Positions 1 to 17,745 of a DNA stretch of 21,267 nucleotides are shown here, piece by piece (position 1 is the first letter of the stretch; the number at the start of each line of letters is the position of its first letter). The notes below the pieces were generated by a model. It made no database searches. It was not told the DNA's origin and saw only the letters and a program-made list of their open reading frames with translations. The position numbers were made by a program, and so were the translations under genes. Source of the stretch: a virus (Duplodnaviria; Heunggongvirae; Uroviricota; Caudoviricetes). The stretch lies in the IMG/VR virus record IMGVR_UViG_2645727669_000007; one strand, 5' to 3'.

Positions 1-95
1 GGGGAGGAAGGAAACTACCGGATGGAAAGAGTCCCCCTAAAGCAGACTGACAGACATCACAAATCCCCGGGTGGGGATTTGTGTATAAGAGACAG
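1..95 (-). mobile_element. Terminus of an IS50-like (IS4-family) insertion sequence; 19-bp terminal inverted repeat at 77..95, element body lies left of the window
   Basis: Minus strand of 77..95 reads CTGTCTCTTATACACAAAT, which matches the IS50 outside end (CTGACTCTTATACACAAGT) at 17 of 19 positions as I recall it. The adjacent integrase reading frame loses homology exactly at this point. Confidence 0.55.
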
Positions 96-1115
96 CCGAG
101 TGGCAGGGAATACAAAACTGATACCCTTAAAGCGTGGTAAAGCTTTTAACAAGGCAACAGCAGCATCAGACAGAGGAACTCGATGCTCCTTCGCTGCTTT
201 CATTCGGCTTGCAGGTATGGTCCACGTTTTACCTTCAAGATCGATCTCTGACCACTCGGCACCACGAATTTCACCTGAGCGTGCTGCGGTCAGTATGGCA
301 AACTCAAGCGCACGAGGAGAAACGCCGCTTCGTTCACGTAGTTCTTTCATAAAAGAGCCGATCTGGTTATAGGGAAGGGCCGCATGGTGTTTGGTGATCT
401 GAACTTTACTTGGCTGAGGCAACAGAGGTTTCAGCATACCTTTCCATGCGGCAGGATTATCACCTTCAAAGTATTCTTTGGCCTTGGCGTAATCGATCAC
501 TGTTTCAATACGTCCACGTAGACGACTGGCAGTTTCATTCTTGGTTAACCAGATAGGTTCCAGTATTGCCAGAAGATCGACTTTGGTGATTTCACTAACG
601 GCCTTTTTGCCAATGAAAGGGTAGGCATAGGTTTCCAGTGTGGAACGCCATTGCGCGAGATGTTTTTTGTTCTTCATCTCACTGTCTTTGACCTCCAGCA
701 CTTCTTCACAACATTCGGCAAAGGTCTTTTTCTTCCGGGCCAGTATTTCCTGCCGGGCTTTTTGTTCGTGTTTTTCTTGAAGGGGATTAATACCATTACG
801 GATTTGTTTACGTAGCTCACGCGCTTTGTCACGCGCTTCGGCTAAGGAGACTTCCGGGTAAGGGCCAAGCCCCATATTCAAACGTCTTGGAACTGTTCTA
901 CCGAGATTGTTGATTCGGGTTCCCATAGCCACGCAAAGAACCCATGCACGGGACTGATTTCGGATGCGAAGGTATAAACCATCCACATTACCAACCGCAT
1001 ACATGCCTTCGGATTTTAATCGTGATACGACGAGTCCTGATAGTTCCTTGGCCCTTTCAATGGCATTCGTCACACTTGATACAGAGTTGGCACATTCCTT
1101 GGTATTCTTTAACAT
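96..1115 (-). pseudogene. P4-like tyrosine integrase, 3'-truncated by IS insertion (catalytic His/Arg/Tyr region missing)
   Basis: ORF 57..1115 has integrase N-terminal and core motifs (GLYLRI, PEVSLAEARDKAREL, ILTAARSGEIRGAEW) and ends after FVFPATR. The last 12 codons (57..95) are encoded by the IS terminus. The intact paralog at 3215..4483 continues about 110 residues past the equivalent point. Confidence 0.7.
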
Positions 1116-1316
1116 TACTTTTTATCAACATCAGAATTTCGCATGTAGAAGGTAATCTAAGGTATTGAAATACTTATTGTTATTGTGATATATATAACAT
1201 ATGCAATGATAAGCGCATTTATAGTTTGCGGGTAATTTTTATCTTTTACTGATGGTGTTTATTATTAATGATCATTAATGTAATATATATTAAAATTATT
1301 TTTATGAGGTTCTATT

Positions 1317-2432
1317 ATGTCTGTTAATGATGCCAAAAAACTTGCGGATAAACTTTTCCCAATATTTGATGATGATGATATTTCTATCGTTGATATTCCC
1401 CCTGAGCAGCGTCGATTGCATACCGAGACTTACGATTTTTCAATATCAACACTCGTCGACTATTTGAAAAATGGTACTGTGTTTATTCCTGATTTTCAAA
1501 GGAAATATGTTTGGAGTAGAGGGCAGGCATCAAGATTAATTGAGTCTTTAATAATCCAGTGTCCTATCCCTGTTATTTATTTAAACCAAGAGAAAGATGA
1601 GAGTTTATCTGTTATTGATGGTAATCAACGGTTGACTTCAATTAAACTATTTATTGAGGATGGTTTTGAATTACAGGGATTGACAGCATATCCAGAATTG
1701 GAGGGGAATTCGTTTTCATCACTGGACGCGAGATTCCGTAGGCATATTTTAAATCGCACATTGAGATGCATAACCATATTAAAAGAAACTCACCCTCAAA
1801 TTAAAATTGATGTTTTTGAAAGAATAAATACAGGTGCAGTACAATTAAATCCTCAGGAGGTACGTCATGGAGTTTATCATGGTCCATTATTTACTATGAT
1901 TGACGAAATAAGTGAGGAGAAAGTATGGAGAGACTTAACAGGAATTAAAAATGACACACGAATGAAGAATAATGAACTCATATTGAGAGCATTCGCACTT
2001 TCATATTCTGTGACACCATATAAAAAACCATTAAAGAAATTCCTTAATGATTTTAGTTCTGAAAAACAAAATATTGAACCTGATGTTGCCTTGGAGTGGC
2101 GTAGTAGATTTCTTGGTGCATTAAACTGTATTAATAAATTGTTTGGTAAAAAAGCATTTAGAATTCTAAATGAAAACTTAGAGCCTCAAGTAAGAAATTT
2201 CAATTCTGCTTTATTTGATGCTCTAATTGTCGGGTTTATGGTATCAAAATTTAATCAGGATATGATAAACGAACTTGATGCAACAAAACTTAAGGATTTC
2301 TTAATAGAGTTTCAAAGAATAACATCAGAGGAGCGTTTTAATGAGTCGATTACTTCTGGCACTTCGGCGACGCAATCGGTTCATTATCGTATTAGCACAA
2401 TGAAAAATTTCATTGAACGGTATTTCAACTGA
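1317..2432 (+). CDS. DUF262 (ParB/Srx-like, GmrSD N-terminal-type) domain protein with no fused DUF1524/HNH nuclease
   Basis: 371-aa ORF. GAGG sits 8 nt upstream of the ATG. N-terminal motifs DFQRKYVWS and IDGNQRLTS (DGQQR-like) are characteristic of DUF262. The C-terminal half looks helical with no His-Me finger visible by eye. The region is AT-rich relative to flanking DNA. Confidence 0.75.
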   Translation: MSVNDAKKLADKLFPIFDDDDISIVDIPPEQRRLHTETYDFSISTLVDYLKNGTVFIPDFQRKYVWSRGQASRLIESLIIQCPIPVIYLNQEKDESLSVIDGNQRLTSIKLFIEDGFELQGLTAYPELEGNSFSSLDARFRRHILNRTLRCITILKETHPQIKIDVFERINTGAVQLNPQEVRHGVYHGPLFTMIDEISEEKVWRDLTGIKNDTRMKNNELILRAFALSYSVTPYKKPLKKFLNDFSSEKQNIEPDVALEWRSRFLGALNCINKLFGKKAFRILNENLEPQVRNFNSALFDALIVGFMVSKFNQDMINELDATKLKDFLIEFQRITSEERFNESITSGTSATQSVHYRISTMKNFIERYFN

Positions 2433-3148
2433 TGGCATATATTAAAAGCGCATCTAGAAAACAATTCGAGCAGATTCATTCCAATTTGCTTGAACAGGTT
2501 CGTTATGTTTCAAAAATAAAAGAATTAAGAACAGATATTATACATAGTGTTTATAATAACGCGATATTTCGAGTTTCTGCTGCATTCGAAGATTATATTA
2601 AAGATGTTTTGGAAGATTGGATTGACATGCTGAACCAAAATAACGGATGCCTTTCGCATCTACCTGATGAAATTATCTTGTTTTCTTTATTCAAAAACCA
2701 AGAGAAAAATTTTATAAATTACGTTTCTCATGGTTCTGAGTCAATAATGATGAGTGACTTAAATAAGTGTAAGGATAAACTTCAGGCGTTATCGTCACCT
2801 AATTCTCCTGTAAAGCCTGTTATTGTCCCAAAACAGCTGATAATGGATAAAAAATATCCTTCCAAAAAAAATATCAAACTTCTTTTTAATAGATTTGGTA
2901 TCAAAGATATATTAAAAGCAATGACTGCGAAAGGTAAAAAAGATTATGAGTTCATGCTCCAGTCTTTCTCTGATAGCCGCACGGAGTTAGCCCATTCATA
3001 TTCTTCAATTAATCTTTCAAAAGATACTGTTATTGATAAGCTAAATAATGTTAAAGAAATTGTTAGGATTATGGATAGGATATTATATTCACATGTCTGT
3101 GATAAAAGTGGTAGTGAATACTGGAAAACAGAACTGTTAGCGATTTAG
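2432..3148 (+). CDS. Partner protein of the DUF262 gene; candidate HEPN-like effector (Rx4HxY motif)
   Basis: 238-aa ORF whose ATG overlaps the upstream stop (TGATG), indicating translational coupling. Contains SRTELAHSY (R-x4-H followed by Y) in the C-terminal third. No other family recognised by eye. Confidence 0.55.
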   Translation: MAYIKSASRKQFEQIHSNLLEQVRYVSKIKELRTDIIHSVYNNAIFRVSAAFEDYIKDVLEDWIDMLNQNNGCLSHLPDEIILFSLFKNQEKNFINYVSHGSESIMMSDLNKCKDKLQALSSPNSPVKPVIVPKQLIMDKKYPSKKNIKLLFNRFGIKDILKAMTAKGKKDYEFMLQSFSDSRTELAHSYSSINLSKDTVIDKLNNVKEIVRIMDRILYSHVCDKSGSEYWKTELLAI

Positions 3149-3155
3149 TATTAAT

Positions 3156-3176
3156 GCGGCTAATATCTTTAGCCGC
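3156..3176. terminator. Hairpin between convergent genes (possible bidirectional terminator)
   Basis: GCGGCTA / TAGCCGC 7-bp stem with a 7-nt loop, lying between the stop of 2432..3148 (+) and the stop of the integrase (-). No strong T-run follows. Confidence 0.3.
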
Positions 3177-3214
3177 ATTGAAGTTGAAGCAACCTTTGAC
3201 CACCATGTTTACTT

Positions 3215-4483
3215 TTATTGAGCAAACTCAAACGGCCTGACCATCCCATCCCGATTTGCATCAAGATAATCTGCCCACCACTGTAACATCAATCTTCTCT
3301 GTTCAAGATGTTTGGCCTTATGGGTATAGGCAGCACGCACACTGTTGCTTTCCTTGTGGCTCATCTGAAGTTCTACCGCATCTTTAGACCATAGCCCTGA
3401 TTCAATCAGAGCACTACATGCCAGTGTTCGGAAACCATGACCGCAGATGTCCTGCGTGGTGTCATAGCCCATCTTACGCAGCGCCTTGTTGATGGTGTTT
3501 TCACTCATGGGTTTGAATGAGTCATAACATCCAGTAAAAATTAATCCGGCGTCATTACCTTCTTCATAGGTAAGCTGACGGATCTCTTTCAGTATCTTAA
3601 GAGCCTGCCTGCAAAGGGGAACAAAGTGCTGGCGTTTCATTTTTGCGCCACGCGTGGAATATTTGACGCGCTCAATCACTTCACGCTTTTCTGGTATCAC
3701 CCATAACTTACTGTTGAAGTCGATTTCTGACCATCGTGCATAGCGGAGTTCACTGGAACGAATGAAAATCAACAGATTGAGTTTAATCGCCAGTGTGGTA
3801 AGTCCACGGCCTTTGTAGGCATCAATACGTTCAAGTAGCAGGGGGATCTCTTCCAGCTCCAGTGCGGGACGGTGCTCAGTCTCTGGTTTCTGCACAGCAC
3901 CTTCCATATCGTAAGCAGGATTATGGCGCATAAGTTTTTGCTGGACGGCGTGACGCAGGATGGCAGTGATGTATTGCTTGATCCGCATGGCAATTTCAAG
4001 ATAGCCAAGCGTTTCTGCTTTTTTTACCGGAACAAGCAGATCACCCGTATCCAGATCTGAAACGTTGCTGTCACCAATATCCGGGAATACATAGGTCTCA
4101 AGGCGCTTCCATACCGTATCGGCGTAATCTTCAGACCATTTTGTTTTGGTGGCAAACCAGCTTCTGGCGACGACACGGAACGAACGGGTTTTATCCCGCT
4201 TTTCCTGCAGAGTTTTTTCATCAGCCTGTTTTTTAGCGTTAGGATCGATTCCCTGAGCAAGCAGCTTTTTTGCTTCATCACGTCGTTGTCTGGCATCAGC
4301 AAGAGAAACCGCAGGGTAAACACCAATGGAAAACACTTTCTGTTTACCATCGAAGCGATAGCCTAACTGCCAGTATTTTGAACCATTGGGATGCAAAAGA
4401 AGGTAGAGACCAAATCCATCAGTGAGCTTGACGGCTTTTTCCGCTGGTCTGGCATTTTTTACTTTAGTATCAGTAAGTGACAT
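3215..4483 (-). CDS. P4-like tyrosine integrase (intact), tRNA-Asn associated
   Basis: Start MSLTDTKVKNARP is preceded by GGAGGG. Motifs GFGLYLLLHPNGSKYW, YPAVSLADARQRRDEAKK, HGFRTLACSALIESG and RAAYTHKAKHLEQRRLMLQWWADYLD are present. The ORF-track start at 4549 adds an unlikely 22-aa extension. The gene lies immediately downstream of the tRNA-Asn 3' end. Confidence 0.85.
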   Translation of the reverse strand: MSLTDTKVKNARPAEKAVKLTDGFGLYLLLHPNGSKYWQLGYRFDGKQKVFSIGVYPAVSLADARQRRDEAKKLLAQGIDPNAKKQADEKTLQEKRDKTRSFRVVARSWFATKTKWSEDYADTVWKRLETYVFPDIGDSNVSDLDTGDLLVPVKKAETLGYLEIAMRIKQYITAILRHAVQQKLMRHNPAYDMEGAVQKPETEHRPALELEEIPLLLERIDAYKGRGLTTLAIKLNLLIFIRSSELRYARWSEIDFNSKLWVIPEKREVIERVKYSTRGAKMKRQHFVPLCRQALKILKEIRQLTYEEGNDAGLIFTGCYDSFKPMSENTINKALRKMGYDTTQDICGHGFRTLACSALIESGLWSKDAVELQMSHKESNSVRAAYTHKAKHLEQRRLMLQWWADYLDANRDGMVRPFEFAQ

Positions 4484-4623
4484 GACGGTTCCCTCCGCGT
4501 GCTGGTAAAACGCAAATCGAACCAGCTTTACCAGCATTTTTACCAGCAAAGTAGTGTGGATTCGAGCGGTTTTTAACGAACGAGGGTGAACCTGAAGAAG
4601 GGGATAACCAGTTGATATAAATG

Positions 4624-4650
4624 CAGAAAACAGACGTCAGTGAACGTCTG
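4624..4650 (-). terminator. Rho-independent terminator downstream of tRNA-Asn
   Basis: Hairpin CAGACGT-cagtga-ACGTCTG (4631..4650) is followed on the minus strand by a TTTTCT run, and sits directly 3' of the tRNA. Confidence 0.6.
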
Positions 4651-4662
4651 CTTTCTTTAAAT

Positions 4663-4738
4663 TGGCTCCTCTGACTGGACTCGAACCAGTGACATACGGA
4701 TTAACAGTCCGCCGTTCTACCGACTGAACTACAGAGGA
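4663..4738 (-). tRNA. asnT: tRNA-Asn (anticodon GTT)
   Basis: Reverse complement reads TCCTCTGTAGTTCAGTCGGTAGAACGGCGGACTGTTAATCCGTATGTCACTGGTTCGAGTCCAGTCAGAGGAGCCA, a 76-nt cloverleaf with a CTGTTAA anticodon loop that matches E. coli tRNA-Asn as I recall it. The asnT assignment rests on the neighbouring mtfA and serU genes. Confidence 0.9.
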
Positions 4739-10239: not shown

Positions 10240-10297
10240 AAAAAGGGCGGCAGAGCAGTCACGGAGTAAAACTGATACCGCCAAACGTCACCAGAAA
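10240..10297 (-). ncRNA. dicF: DicF small RNA (ftsZ-targeting sRNA) with intrinsic terminator
   Basis: Minus strand reads TTTCTGGTGACGTTTGGCGGTATCAGTTTTACTCCGTGACTGCTCTGCCGCCCTTTTT. This matches the DicF sequence as I recall it and includes a GGCGG...CCGCC stem plus U-run. It lies between the ydfC-like and dicB genes, as in the Qin dicB operon. Confidence 0.7.
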
Positions 10298-14039: not shown

Positions 14040-14462
14040 GTGGCAAAAGTTTTTACACAAGAAGAGCGAGAAAAAATTAAAGGGCAGGTTGTTGAACTCG
14101 TACGCCAGAGTGGGCGTGAGACGTTACGGCAACTGGAAGTCAAGACAGGTGCGACAAGATATCTGATGAGCGTTCTCGCAAGAGAGCTGGTTGCCAGCGG
14201 CGATGTATACAACTCTGGTTACGGGTTATTCCCGTCTGAACAGGCGCGTAAGGACTGGCAAAATGCCCGTAAAAAGCTCTCAAGGGCAAAGCTGAAGAAA
14301 CCATCTGCGGTTGATCCGGACCTTATCTGGTCATTACCTGATGGAGAAATACGTCGTTACGACAGGCGTCATAATATAATTTGTACTGAGTGTCGTAAAA
14401 GCGAAGTTATGCAGCGGATATTGTCGTTTTATCAGGGGGATGTTCGGTATTTTTTGAAGTGA
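14040..14462 (+). CDS. Hypothetical prophage protein
   Basis: 140-aa ORF with a GTG start 4 nt after AGGAGG. Basic residues and a CTECRK motif. No family recognised. Confidence 0.4.
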   Translation: MAKVFTQEEREKIKGQVVELVRQSGRETLRQLEVKTGATRYLMSVLARELVASGDVYNSGYGLFPSEQARKDWQNARKKLSRAKLKKPSAVDPDLIWSLPDGEIRRYDRRHNIICTECRKSEVMQRILSFYQGDVRYFLK

Positions 14463-14700
14463 CGAGATTAAAGTGCATTAGTTCAGATGTAAATTGACAT
14501 TTTGTGGCACAGGGTAGAGCTAGCGTGGTTGTCCGCTTTGTGCCAAAAGCAGACATTGATAACATTGAGATATGTTAATTTATAGGGAGCAGCTCAAGGC
14601 CCACTGGAACTTCCAGTTTTTGCCCCTGAAACCGTTCCCAATGAGCACTTCCATCTGAAGACTGCGCAGTCTTAGTTTTCGTTGCCTTTAGTTTATCCCT

Positions 14701-16035
14701 TTATGATACCGATAAAAACTTTTTTTTAATTTCTGCTGCCGTTTTCTCCATGCTGGGATATACAGTGCTTTCGGATATATTAAGCTGCGCCAGCTCTTCC
14801 AGAATTTTATTTTTGTTCGCTATCTCCACTCTGTTAAGAGGAAACTCAGCATCTGTTTCCGGTAAAATGGGATCAAGTCCGAACAGAAGAAAAGCTCCTG
14901 CCTGAGATTGTATGCGTTCATTATTTATTTTAGCCTTAAGGAAAACAACTTTCCTTAAGTCATCAGGAATTATTCTGTTTCTAAAATATGATTTTTCATT
15001 CTGTATAAGGTCTGCAAGTTTATCAGTGAGTTCAGATAACTCCATATTACCTTTTCTGGAATCAGAGGAGGACAATTTTTCCAACTCTTCGTAAGATAAA
15101 AGTGATAAGTTTGCTATACAGCTCACTGTATCTGAGTCGAAATATTTAATTTTCTTTCTATTTGTTGAAAACGAAATCACCTGTCCGTTTTCATTGGGGT
15201 TCGAACAGCAAGCAAAATATAATGCTATCAGTGGGTTAGATGTAATGTCTAAGAGTCTTGTAGGCAAGCCATAATGCTGCATGCGGACAAGTTTATCAAT
15301 CGTAAATTTATCCTCCTTAAATTCATTTGGTCTTGCGCTGAGTATTTCACGTACTAAATCAGATTCTGAAGCAAGATGCCTGTACGTCCCGTTTTGATTT
15401 TTTCTGTAAAGAGAGGGGACAAGCTCATATGAGCTTTTAGAGTGTCCACGATAAAAGGTAATGAGACCATCACGAAAGTTTTTCTTTATGAAATTAAGAT
15501 AATCTATAATATTCTCGACTACTGGGTATGTTTGTTTTTTTAATTTGATTGTACCTTTGGGGTGACTATTTTGTTTGTTTAAACCAAGTGATTCCAGAAC
15601 AATATTTAAATCCTTATTTTTTACTGCCCAATGTGTACGGCTTAACCCGAAAGATCCTAGCCCTAGGGTTTCTTTATATAATGTCGTTTGGGGATTCGTT
15701 ATTTCTCCAAAATTATGATTAATCTTGAAAGAAAATAAAATATCGCCACCATCTTTACGTAAATTTCTTATTTCCCCAAGTCTGATCCTGATGTACTTGT
15801 TTGTATCATATTCATCATCTTTTGTATAAGTTTCGGTCATGAACAATACTGGTAGCTTGGCGAGTTCTCTTAAGGTATCGGGTCTTATTGGTGTTAATTT
15901 ACTGTAAATATCGCTTGGGGTGCCTTCCAGCATGCGGGACATCGAGAATCTTTCCTCGCCTTCTGTAAGCCCTGGGTCCATACACGGCCAGCGGTCAAAA
16001 ACGTCCGGTTCTCCGGCCATGATTAAGCTAAACAT
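14701..16035 (-). CDS. FRG-domain protein (defense-associated moron)
   Basis: 444-aa ORF with AGGAG 6 nt upstream of the ATG. FRG-domain signature: ITFYRGHSKSSYELVPSLYR and MQHYGLPTRLLDITSNPLIALYFA. Markedly AT-rich and in opposite orientation to the flanking prophage genes. Confidence 0.65.
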   Translation of the reverse strand: MFSLIMAGEPDVFDRWPCMDPGLTEGEERFSMSRMLEGTPSDIYSKLTPIRPDTLRELAKLPVLFMTETYTKDDEYDTNKYIRIRLGEIRNLRKDGGDILFSFKINHNFGEITNPQTTLYKETLGLGSFGLSRTHWAVKNKDLNIVLESLGLNKQNSHPKGTIKLKKQTYPVVENIIDYLNFIKKNFRDGLITFYRGHSKSSYELVPSLYRKNQNGTYRHLASESDLVREILSARPNEFKEDKFTIDKLVRMQHYGLPTRLLDITSNPLIALYFACCSNPNENGQVISFSTNRKKIKYFDSDTVSCIANLSLLSYEELEKLSSSDSRKGNMELSELTDKLADLIQNEKSYFRNRIIPDDLRKVVFLKAKINNERIQSQAGAFLLFGLDPILPETDAEFPLNRVEIANKNKILEELAQLNISESTVYPSMEKTAAEIKKKFLSVS

Positions 16036-16528
16036 CGCAATCTCCTAAATTTACTTGCTAAAGTCAGTGTACTTTTATCATGTTGCTTCATTGTGTATGA
16101 AAGTAACATTGGTTGTCCATGCTCGTTTGTCTCTCATAATTCACAAATTTGCGAATATTTTTTATAAAAAATTCAAAACAGATAGGTTGACACAATCAAA
16201 ATTCACAAAGGGCACCTGCTTCTAATGTGGTTACGGCCCGATCATACGGGCAATGTCTTTCCATTATTGAAAACTCCGGGATCAACCATGATATATGAAG
16301 TCTCTTGCTATCCAGTTAAGTAAATGTCTGCTTCTCGCTCAAAGTGGGCTAGAAGGTTAGCTTGCGTCGGACTTGGCGTATTTAAAGAAGTGCTGGTGGT
16401 GACTGGTTATTGTGTTCCATTTCTACAGAACAAAATCACAGAAACTATACCCAATAGTTGTATTGAATCACTGACGAGACAGCCTCATATTTATCAGGAC
16501 TGATGTACGTCCAATACAGGAGGTTGTG

Positions 16529-16618
16529 GTGCTGGTTCTCAAATGTGCGCTGGCTATTGCTGCCTTAATGGCAATTTATTGCCTTGCTGTTGTTCTTATG
16601 GATCGCCTTTCTGACTGA
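16529..16618 (+). CDS. Candidate 29-aa hydrophobic peptide (type I toxin-like)
   Basis: AGGAGG at 16518..16523, then a 5-nt spacer and a GTG start. Product MLVLKCALAIAALMAIYCLAVVLMDRLSD has a single predicted transmembrane helix. Not in the ORF track because it is under 60 aa. Confidence 0.25.
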   Translation: MLVLKCALAIAALMAIYCLAVVLMDRLSD

Positions 16619-16829
16619 TTTCATATTGGCGAGGTAACGGGAGTTAAGTAGAATGGCTGCGGGTGCTTGAGGCTATCTGTCTCAGGCATGAACACCAAAG
16701 GCAGATAGAGAAAAGCCCCAGTTAACATTACGCGTCCTGCAAGACGCTTAACATTAATCTGAGGCTCAATCTATGAACGGCAAATCTAGGTTAGCCTCTT
16801 ACGTGCCGAAAGGCAAGGAGAAGCAGGCT

Positions 16830-16985
16830 ATGAAGCAGCAAAAGGCGATGTTAATCGCCCTGATCGTCATCTGTTTAACCGTCATAGTGACGGCACTGGT
16901 AACGAGGAAAGACCTCTGCGAGGTACGAATCCGAACCGGCCAGACGGAGGTCGCTGTCTTCACAGCTTACGAACCTGAGGAGTAA
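16830..16985 (+). CDS. hok: Hok/Gef-family type I toxin (HokD/RelF-like)
   Basis: 51-aa product MKQQKAMLIALIVICLTVIVTALVTRKDLCEVRIRTGQTEVAVFTAYEPEE with AAGGAG upstream. The ORF-track entry at 16773 is an in-frame upstream extension. Confidence 0.8.
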   Translation: MKQQKAMLIALIVICLTVIVTALVTRKDLCEVRIRTGQTEVAVFTAYEPEE

Positions 16986-17128
16986 GAGACCTGGCGGGGG
17001 AGAAATCCCTCGCCACCTCTGATGTGTCAGGCATCCTCAACGCACCCGCACTTAACCCGCTTCGGCGTTTTTTCCGTTGATTAACTCTAGTTATTAGAGA
17101 ACCGAACTTTTATTGATGGGGCAGGGAG

Positions 17129-17521
17129 ATGAAGAAACTTGTTTTAGTCGCAGGTGTAATGATTGCAACAGTAATGTTGGGAGGGTGTGCAGCAAAGGTC
17201 GATCCAGCGTTGAAAGCAGAAGCAATGAAGCCACTAACATGTAATGATGAAAAGCAATGTGACTTTTATTGGAAACGAGCGCAATTCTGGTTGGCTAATA
17301 ATTCCTCATGGAAAATTCAAACGGCGACAGACACGCTAATTTCCACTTATAATCCCTCTCCAAATAGTCCATTCCTCGCTTATCAAGTGAGTAAAATGCC
17401 AAATGAAGATGGATCCTCAAGAATTTTCATCAAGCCTTTTTGCGATAATATGTTTGGCTGTCAACCAAACCCCTATCAGGCAGTTGTTTCCTTTAAAAAC
17501 TTCGTTAAAACAGGGCAGTAG
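17129..17521 (+). CDS. Prophage lipoprotein (signal peptide with LGGC lipobox)
   Basis: MKKLVLVAGVMIATVMLGGCAAK N-terminus with GGGAG upstream, followed by a clean intrinsic terminator. Confidence 0.7.
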   Translation: MKKLVLVAGVMIATVMLGGCAAKVDPALKAEAMKPLTCNDEKQCDFYWKRAQFWLANNSSWKIQTATDTLISTYNPSPNSPFLAYQVSKMPNEDGSSRIFIKPFCDNMFGCQPNPYQAVVSFKNFVKTGQ

Positions 17522-17720
17522 TGTATAGCTTGGACGATAAATTATTAGTGAAAACGCCGTAAACCCTCACCCAATGTGGACTAAGCCTATCAAACATGAC
17601 TGTGATGATTAGTCCGTAGTTGTTGCCTATGAAATCTGGATTGAGTCAGGGTTTAATCCAATAATTCTTCTATCGTTCCTTTACAAGTCCGGTATATTAC
17701 TTTCAGTTTGTTTTAGCATA

Positions 17721-17745
17721 CCCGCTTCGGCGGGTTTTGTTTTTT
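17721..17745 (+). terminator. Rho-independent terminator
   Basis: CCCGC-ttcg-GCGGG stem-loop followed by TTTTGTTTTTT. Confidence 0.7.

Follow-up and report, generated by a model that had tools for sequence, protein, structure and literature searches.

The assignment of the FRG domain, which is widespread, enriched on mobile elements and without experimentally known activity, to the ADP-ribosyltransferases (ARTs) reportedly goes back to work of Burroughs and Aravind in 2020. Here we analyse one FRG gene on the minus strand of the virus record IMGVR_UViG_2645727669_000007, a stretch of 21,267 nt (hereafter the window) that represents a lambdoid prophage integrated beside tRNA-Ser and mtfA. The FRG annotation of this gene is already known: NCBI has an identical protein under the title 'FRG domain-containing protein [Escherichia coli]', in agreement with the name given by PGAP. 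The PADLOC collection lists the family as a defence candidate, PDC-S15. In Iyer et al. 2022 (PMC9503650), Frg is assigned to the ART superfamily and predicted to be an NADase effector of prokaryotic immunity.

As a PDC-S15 protein, the product of this gene is matched by profile on residues 167-440 and is encoded by a single gene on a mobile element, but the matching profiles miss its N-terminal ~155 aa (hereafter the N-domain), and PDC-S15 itself is a prediction without a validated member. Modification-dependent (type IV) restriction enzymes with PUA-like readers (the EVE-HNH enzyme VcaM4I, the YTH-like McrB-N, and PD-T4-3) similarly combine an N-terminal PUA-like fold and a catalytic effector in one polypeptide on mobile elements. 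They differ in that the FRG effector is no nuclease and in that the N-domain falls outside EVE, YTH and ASCH by sequence. TIR/SIR2 NADase defence proteins with fused sensors (PDC-S35, ThsA-like logic) are related to it by the same N-domain, which is found on CAP12/Pycsar-type TIR in PDC-S35-like proteins, whereas here FRG takes the place of TIR as effector and a partner that would produce a signal is absent.

We infer that the FRG gene is most likely an anti-phage defence gene of this catalogued candidate family. More specifically, and tentatively, we favour reading its product as a single-protein sensor-effector anti-phage system of the superinfection-exclusion or abortive-infection type, carried as lysogenic-conversion cargo in a slot between the replication module (DUF977) and sok/hokD, in which a PUA-like sensor would control an FRG effector that consumes NAD+ or ADP-ribosylates a target. 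We favour single-protein sensor-effector immunity because a conserved domain recurs with one toxic effector or another, in genes that stand alone on mobile elements.

The FRG gene and its effector half

The open reading frame (ORF) codes for 444 aa, and its translation contains all signature motifs by which a preliminary description of this DNA had recognised an FRG protein: FYRGH (194-198), LVPSLYR (205-211), HYGLPTRLLD (254-263) and NPLIALYFA (267-275). The profile search suggested there bore out the assignment, as Pfam FRG (PF08867) matched residues 193-282 (E 2.8e-22), scoring 79.9 bits where 25 is the cutoff and covering profile positions 3-92 of 94. The (F/Y)RG motif is present as F194-Y-R196-G197-H198, of which R196, G197 and H198 are invariant across 43 homologues. 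Furthermore, the PDC-S15 profile PDLC04936 covered residues 167-440 (E 2.6e-99), 13 more PDC-S15 profiles matched, and PHROG 4962 (function unknown) was a full-length match; no NCBIfam model matched the protein. Nuclease families were absent from its matches in Pfam, NCBIfam and PADLOC, which leaves it outside the type IV restriction nucleases. Full-length homologues with 42-87% identity were found in Enterobacterales, Aeromonas, Rhizobium and Sphingomonas. Since these homologues retain many invariant residues across such taxa, the gene is functional and under selection.

Structural comparison of the effector half returned proteins of ART fold (match values in brackets), namely heat-labile enterotoxin (5.1), ArtA (4.8), RES toxins (4.6, 4.0) and Tpt1 (4.1), and further TccC3, pertussis toxin, diphtheria toxin, Scabin and CARDS. 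When solved structures were searched by sequence, neither the protein nor the family profile nor either of two N-domain profiles met with a meaningful match. The FRG protein differs from ART toxins and NADases (RES/ParT, cholera- and pertussis-like toxins, DarT, CmdT, Tpt1) in that it has no detectable sequence similarity to solved ARTs and carries a large helical insert (~302-361). Residues invariant in the homologue alignment include R196-G-H198 in the first strand, P207-S208, R211, Q253-H254, P258-T-R-L-L-D263, T265, N267-P268, S301-D-T-V-S-C306 and E347-K348, as well as N372, R374, Q378, G380 and F382 in the C-terminal strands. By position, R196 and the post-strand turn T265-S266-N267 look like counterparts of the R and S-T-S elements in R-S-E ARTs, a mapping drawn from sequence and secondary structure, and R196/H198 together with T265-S266-N267 are candidate residues of an ART catalytic triad (R-S-E or H-Y-E).

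An N-terminal domain fused to diverse effectors

The region of roughly 190 aa that precedes the FRG core had been described as belonging to no recognisable family. With respect to Pfam this holds, but the region is not featureless: it consists of a compact, well-modelled domain of ~155 aa, which is widespread and can be assigned at the level of fold, and a ~35-aa linker marked by alignment gaps and low conservation at columns 170-215 and by a dip in model confidence (pLDDT). The fold matches of the N-domain were YTH domains (7.0-5.5), ASCH (6.3), the EVE-HNH restriction enzyme VcaM4I (5.8) and Lon-N (5.5), with McrB N-domains (4.8, 4.7) and the 5-hydroxymethylcytosine-specific enzyme PD-T4-3 (4.1) at lower rank; Foldseek gave faint hints only. 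The modelled N-domain is therefore best described as a predicted PUA-like beta-barrel, by fold resemblance and not by family membership. At sequence level, a Pfam search at E <= 10 with 35 N-domain sequences gave no PUA-like (EVE/YTH/ASCH) match and no consistent weak family, and profile searches of the PDB with the N-domain gave no match. Alignment by hhalign of the N-domain profile with a P2-encoded ASCH/DUF3850 protein reached a probability of 0.2%, a weak test given its single-sequence template.

Conserved motifs of the N-domain are SR34xLE37xT39, P62xLFxxE68, G87 and R133-T-H135-W136-A-x-K139. Of these residues R34, E68, R133, W136 and K139 are invariant and E37, T39 and H135 nearly so, and this set of polar and aromatic positions is compatible with a putative ligand pocket or active site. 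The nearest folds are readers of modified bases, some of them fused to restriction nucleases (VcaM4I, McrB-N, PD-T4-3), and the ART-fold matches of the effector half include the nucleic-acid-modifying Tpt1/KptA and Scabin. Both observations would suit a modification-dependent direct immunity, in which the PUA-like domain reads modified bases in phage DNA or RNA (cf. the EVE, YTH and SRA readers of type IV restriction) and FRG/ART ADP-ribosylates nucleic acid (cf. DarT, CmdT), with no NAD+ depletion and with survival of the cell. DNA- or mRNA-modifying ART enzymes are established defence effectors (PMC11825919, PMC11618068). We consider this direct form of immunity unlikely.

The N-domain is fused promiscuously to defence effector domains. 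An exhaustive profile search found it in 878 cluster representatives, and for 209 of these the E value was 1e-10 or lower. Among the best 148 of the 878, its partners were CAP12/Pycsar-type TIR (21 proteins), FRG (17), Abi_C (7), TIR_2 (6), TIR (4), protein kinase (4) and SEFIR (2), and in single proteins KAP NTPase, SLFN/AlbA_2, PNP_UDP_1, AbiJ_NTD3, FGE-sulfatase, EAD2 and a DncV-like nucleotidyltransferase (NTase). In every architecture examined in detail the N-domain lay N-terminal to the catalytic domain, with ~20-40 residues between the two in TIR, FRG and kinase fusions, ~80 in protein P0217 and ~200 in P0238; in one architecture it follows an EAD2 adaptor. The occurrence of the same N-domain on TIR and FRG proteins implies that they have a sensor in common, to which one or another NAD+-directed effector can be joined, and a role of FRG directed at NAD+ is supported by its exchange with TIR NADases on this domain. 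The domain, its PUA-like fold and its effector-swapping distribution are absent from the libraries searched.

A link of the N-domain to the validated system PD-T4-6 was considered and rejected, as the models of PD-T4-6, PDC-S35 and PDC-S15 match the kinase, TIR and FRG parts only. Because the PADLOC models cover only these catalytic parts, no link of the N-domain to a validated system can be claimed.

One protein is ordered DncV-like NTase, N-domain, FRG. This chain of 760 aa is encoded on a metagenome contig (L020, 7001-9283) with transposases around it and a DruA fragment near, and it may represent a single-chain signalling-plus-effector design. The N-domain-TIR and NTase-N-domain-FRG genes examined were solitary, among toxin-antitoxin and transposase genes. 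The fusion bears on a further explanation, by which the FRG protein would be an orphan second-messenger effector whose N-domain binds a nucleotide signal (cf. SAVED, STING, SLOG) that originates from the phage or from another source in the cell, so that the protein would be one arm of a signalling pathway and not a complete system by itself. However, NTase fusion was seen in only one of the best 148 of the 878 proteins, and no cyclase or partner gene was present in the cassette that holds the FRG gene, in the copies in the P2 hotspot (see below) or beside the TIR fusion. An orphan effector of this kind is in our view quite unlikely.

A variable cargo slot between DUF977 and hokD

The prophage comprises, in order, integrase, exonuclease, DicF/dicB, ydfC, ydfB, cI and cro-like genes, a YdaT-family protein, a replisome organiser and DUF977, and continues with the FRG gene in reverse orientation, sok/hokD, a small lipoprotein-like ORF, DUF968, RusA and Q. 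The limits of the cassette that holds the FRG gene (Table 1) were determined by blastn against four prophage loci with other cargo (L006-L009), in which the conserved flanks stop at 14558-14566 and resume at 16323-16335. The FRG gene is the only gene within these limits. Its GC content is 0.369, compared to 0.508 in the left and 0.513 in the right flank, and its strand is opposite to that of DUF977, hokD, DUF968, RusA and Q, so that both the AT-richness and the orientation noted previously are borne out. A Shine-Dalgarno sequence, AGGAG, was read 6 nt before its ATG.

Of 5,426 complete E. coli genomes, 4,999 match parts of the query, but only 28 have the FRG gene at the DUF977-hokD locus. The nearest complete genomes are 98.8% identical across the prophage segment, and the prophage of strain LF82, deposited as phage Tritos, has the same DUF977-FRG-hokD order. 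In related prophages with these flanks the slot is occupied by two hypothetical genes, by a protein with DUF5677 or, in reverse orientation, with DUF4209, by an alpha/beta hydrolase that is likewise reversed (O157-type), or by QueH, methyltransferases (methyltransferase with DUF7167) or IS3. The DUF4209 protein (595 aa, 1024-2811 of locus L008, E. coli EF5-18-41) is itself a PADLOC candidate, PDC-S39, with E 8e-103. Because of its low GC content, reversed strand, own Shine-Dalgarno sequence and rarity, and the alternative cargo in the slot, the FRG gene is a moron in a variable slot, as the preliminary description had proposed; the alternative of a conserved housekeeping gene failed when the insertion point was compared across prophages. 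Lambdoid prophages thus seem to take up cargo in the DUF977-hokD interval much as P2 and P4 do in their hotspots.

Homologues of the FRG protein lie in a known phage defence hotspot, which upholds the defence association suggested earlier together with the PDC-S15 match. In P2-like prophages they are found, at 40-60% identity, between replication gene A and the portal gene, in Peduovirus P2_2H1 (43.5% identity) and in two E. coli copies, P0048 (60%) and P0092 (45%), the latter adjoining a retron-like reverse transcriptase (RT). The gpA-portal interval of P2-like phages is a hotspot described by Rousset et al. 2022 (PMC9122126); FRG is unmentioned in the main text of that paper and of a 2026 paper on P2/P4 hotspots. 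As seen at 9474-10710 of L016 and 8772-10182 of L011, the FRG homologues are joined in this interval by co-cargo, which consists either of the retron-like RT (316 aa, RVT_1) and a 106-aa protein or, in another variant, of two unannotated proteins of 198 and 243 aa. Moreover, a Klebsiella homologue is in moron position among P2-like tail genes, and that of phage PhiR11_1 lies beside IS2, close to the genome end.

Its place next to hok, where relBE would be expected from the gene order of Qin, had also been pointed out, and the K-12 Qin order is indeed relB-relE-hokD-rem-ydfU-Q. The two loci share the position immediately upstream of hokD in a lambdoid prophage, but the proteins are unrelated, relBE is oriented opposite to the FRG gene, and the nearest relatives of this prophage hold other cargo, not relBE. 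Homology to Qin begins only at position 16816 of the window, within the hok locus. No antitoxin-like partner ORF was found in the cassette, nor as an annotated neighbour in SJC33 or phage Tritos, and a toxin-antitoxin reading of the FRG gene was rejected because of this absence. RES-Xre, DarTG and CmdTAC, in contrast, have an antitoxin partner.

A role other than defence would make the FRG gene a phage-benefit or addiction factor, either modifying the host in ART-like fashion for prophage maintenance, induction or takeover, or stabilising the prophage as a toxin. Phage ARTs acting in host takeover are exemplified by T4 Alt/ModA/ModB (cited in PMC9503650), and the gene adjoins the hok/sok addiction module in the slot of Qin relBE. 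On the other hand, its strand is antisense to the phage operons, both early and late, its composition is foreign, very few related prophages have it, its cassette has no conserved antitoxin-like partner ORF, homologues occur also outside phages among transposases, and the partners of its N-domain are classic defence effectors. We regard a non-defence role as improbable, the least probable of the explanations considered here.

The upstream region of the gene was only partly as first described. Of the 700 bp of AT-rich sequence attributed to it, ~290 bp are private to the cassette (Table 1), and 16323-16660 is conserved prophage sequence outside it, followed by the sok/hok locus from 16661 (Rfam sok, 16661-16835, 110 bits). 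That the entire 700 bp is private to the FRG gene was rejected, as the blastn flanks resume within it. The conserved ~340 bp of 16323-16660 have no annotated gene and are common to prophages with differing cargo; they contain an ORF of 59 aa (16324-16503, plus strand) and a short hydrophobic GTG-initiated ORF at ~16527-16619, VVLVLKCALAIAALMAIYCLAVVLMDRLSD.

Table 1. Positions in the window of the FRG gene, its parts and the borders of its cargo slot
Feature	Position	Strand	Evidence
FRG-domain protein gene, 444 aa	14701..16035	-	ORF, Pfam FRG, PDC-S15, PHROG 4962, PGAP name
N-terminal domain, residues 1 to ~155, predicted PUA-like beta-barrel, motifs SRxLExT, PxLFxxE, RTHWAxK	15571..16035	-	
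Linker, ~residues 156-190, variable in sequence and length	15466..15570	-	alignment gaps, pLDDT dip
FRG core, residues 193-282	15190..15459	-	Pfam match, invariant columns
Whole effector module per PADLOC PDC-S15, residues 167-440	14716..15537	-	FRG core, helical insert, C-terminal strands
Shine-Dalgarno AGGAG	16042..16046	-	read from sequence
Cassette-private upstream region, ~290 bp, GC 0.359, presumed promoter site	16036..16322	-	blastn, GC
Variable cargo cassette holding the FRG gene, GC 0.373	14560..16322	-	blastn vs L006-L009
DUF977 gene, conserved left border of the slot	14040..14462	+	Pfam DUF977; kept in prophages with other cargo
sok/hokD type I toxin-antitoxin, conserved right border; hokD CDS 16830-16985	16661..16985	+	Rfam sok, hokD annotation, ORF

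Several further features were observed in the window. The DicF sRNA (10245-10296, minus strand, Rfam 76.7 bits) lies inside the dicB-ydfC region, as it does in Qin and phage Tritos. A second variable slot is located just 3' of hokD at 17074-17719 (GC 0.395), and in related prophages 17073 is joined straight to 17720. Within it lies a 130-aa ORF (17129-17521) that bears a lipoprotein-type signal, MKKLVLVAGVMIATVMLGGC, and matched nothing in Pfam or PADLOC; phage Tritos has a 204-aa protein and an ImmA/IrrE-HTH protein at this place. The insert is bracketed by two terminator-like hairpins, CCCGCTTCGGCG followed by a T-run, at ~17056-17073 and 17721-17745. At the other end of the window, positions 57-4738 form a separate low-GC island (0.31-0.35) that adjoins tRNA-Asn (4663-4738) and is flanked by two integrase genes, 57-1115 and 3215-4549, both on the minus strand. 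It encodes a GmrSD_N/DUF262 protein (1317-2432; PADLOC NsnA E 5.6e-83, PD-T4-2_A E 9e-44) and a RiboL-PSP HEPN protein (2432-3148), whose start overlaps the stop codon of the GmrSD_N/DUF262 gene. The pair has the look of a two-gene, PD-T4-2-like defence system that travels on an integrative element of its own.

Proposed mechanism and significance

If the FRG protein is a sensor-effector system as we tentatively propose, it would be autoinhibited in the lysogen. The PUA-like N-domain would then detect an infection cue, for which nucleic acids, modified bases and nucleotide-derived ligands are the most plausible candidates, and cue binding would release or cluster the C-terminal FRG module; clustering of the effector domains could also come about if the N-domain bound repeated sites along a polymer. 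With its predicted ART fold, the FRG module would hydrolyse NAD+ or ADP-ribosylate a target, and replication of the superinfecting phage would be blocked.

The following points weigh against this proposal. PDC families are predictions that are described as 'still uncharacterized', and our literature search found no experimental test of any FRG protein and no experimental report of protection against phage by PDC-S15. Unlike in ART toxins and NADases, no invariant Glu is found at the expected ART catalytic (ExE) position; since Q378 is invariant there and E373 varies, the chemistry of FRG may be atypical and differ from that of classical ARTs. Given the EAD2 fusion, the N-domain could equally well be not a primary sensor but the portion of an effector that binds the target. 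Finally, a promoter and terminator scan near the FRG gene gave nothing above chance, the sole sigma-70-like site on its strand (16119-16090) being no better than chance.

A more far-reaching proposal, which we consider doubtful, is that the N-domain is an undescribed, widespread PUA-like sensor of a modified base or nucleotide-derived phage cue that would switch on interchangeable non-nuclease effectors (FRG/ART, TIR, Abi_C, kinases). If true, type IV restriction would have an NAD+-targeting counterpart that is triggered by a modification or a nucleotide, and the prophage gene would offer a tractable case of it in E. coli.

The FRG copy described here sits in an E. coli prophage closely related to phage Tritos of strain LF82, and its self-contained 1.8-kb cassette makes cloning and phage challenge easy. 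The DUF977-hokD slot could be mined for more systems. The N-domain recurs in hundreds of proteins with TIR, FRG, Abi_C or kinase domains, and identification of its ligand would show how a set of single-gene candidate defence systems senses infection. The locus is ordinary for a prophage moron, yet it provides a compact and tractable entry to two uncharacterised domains.

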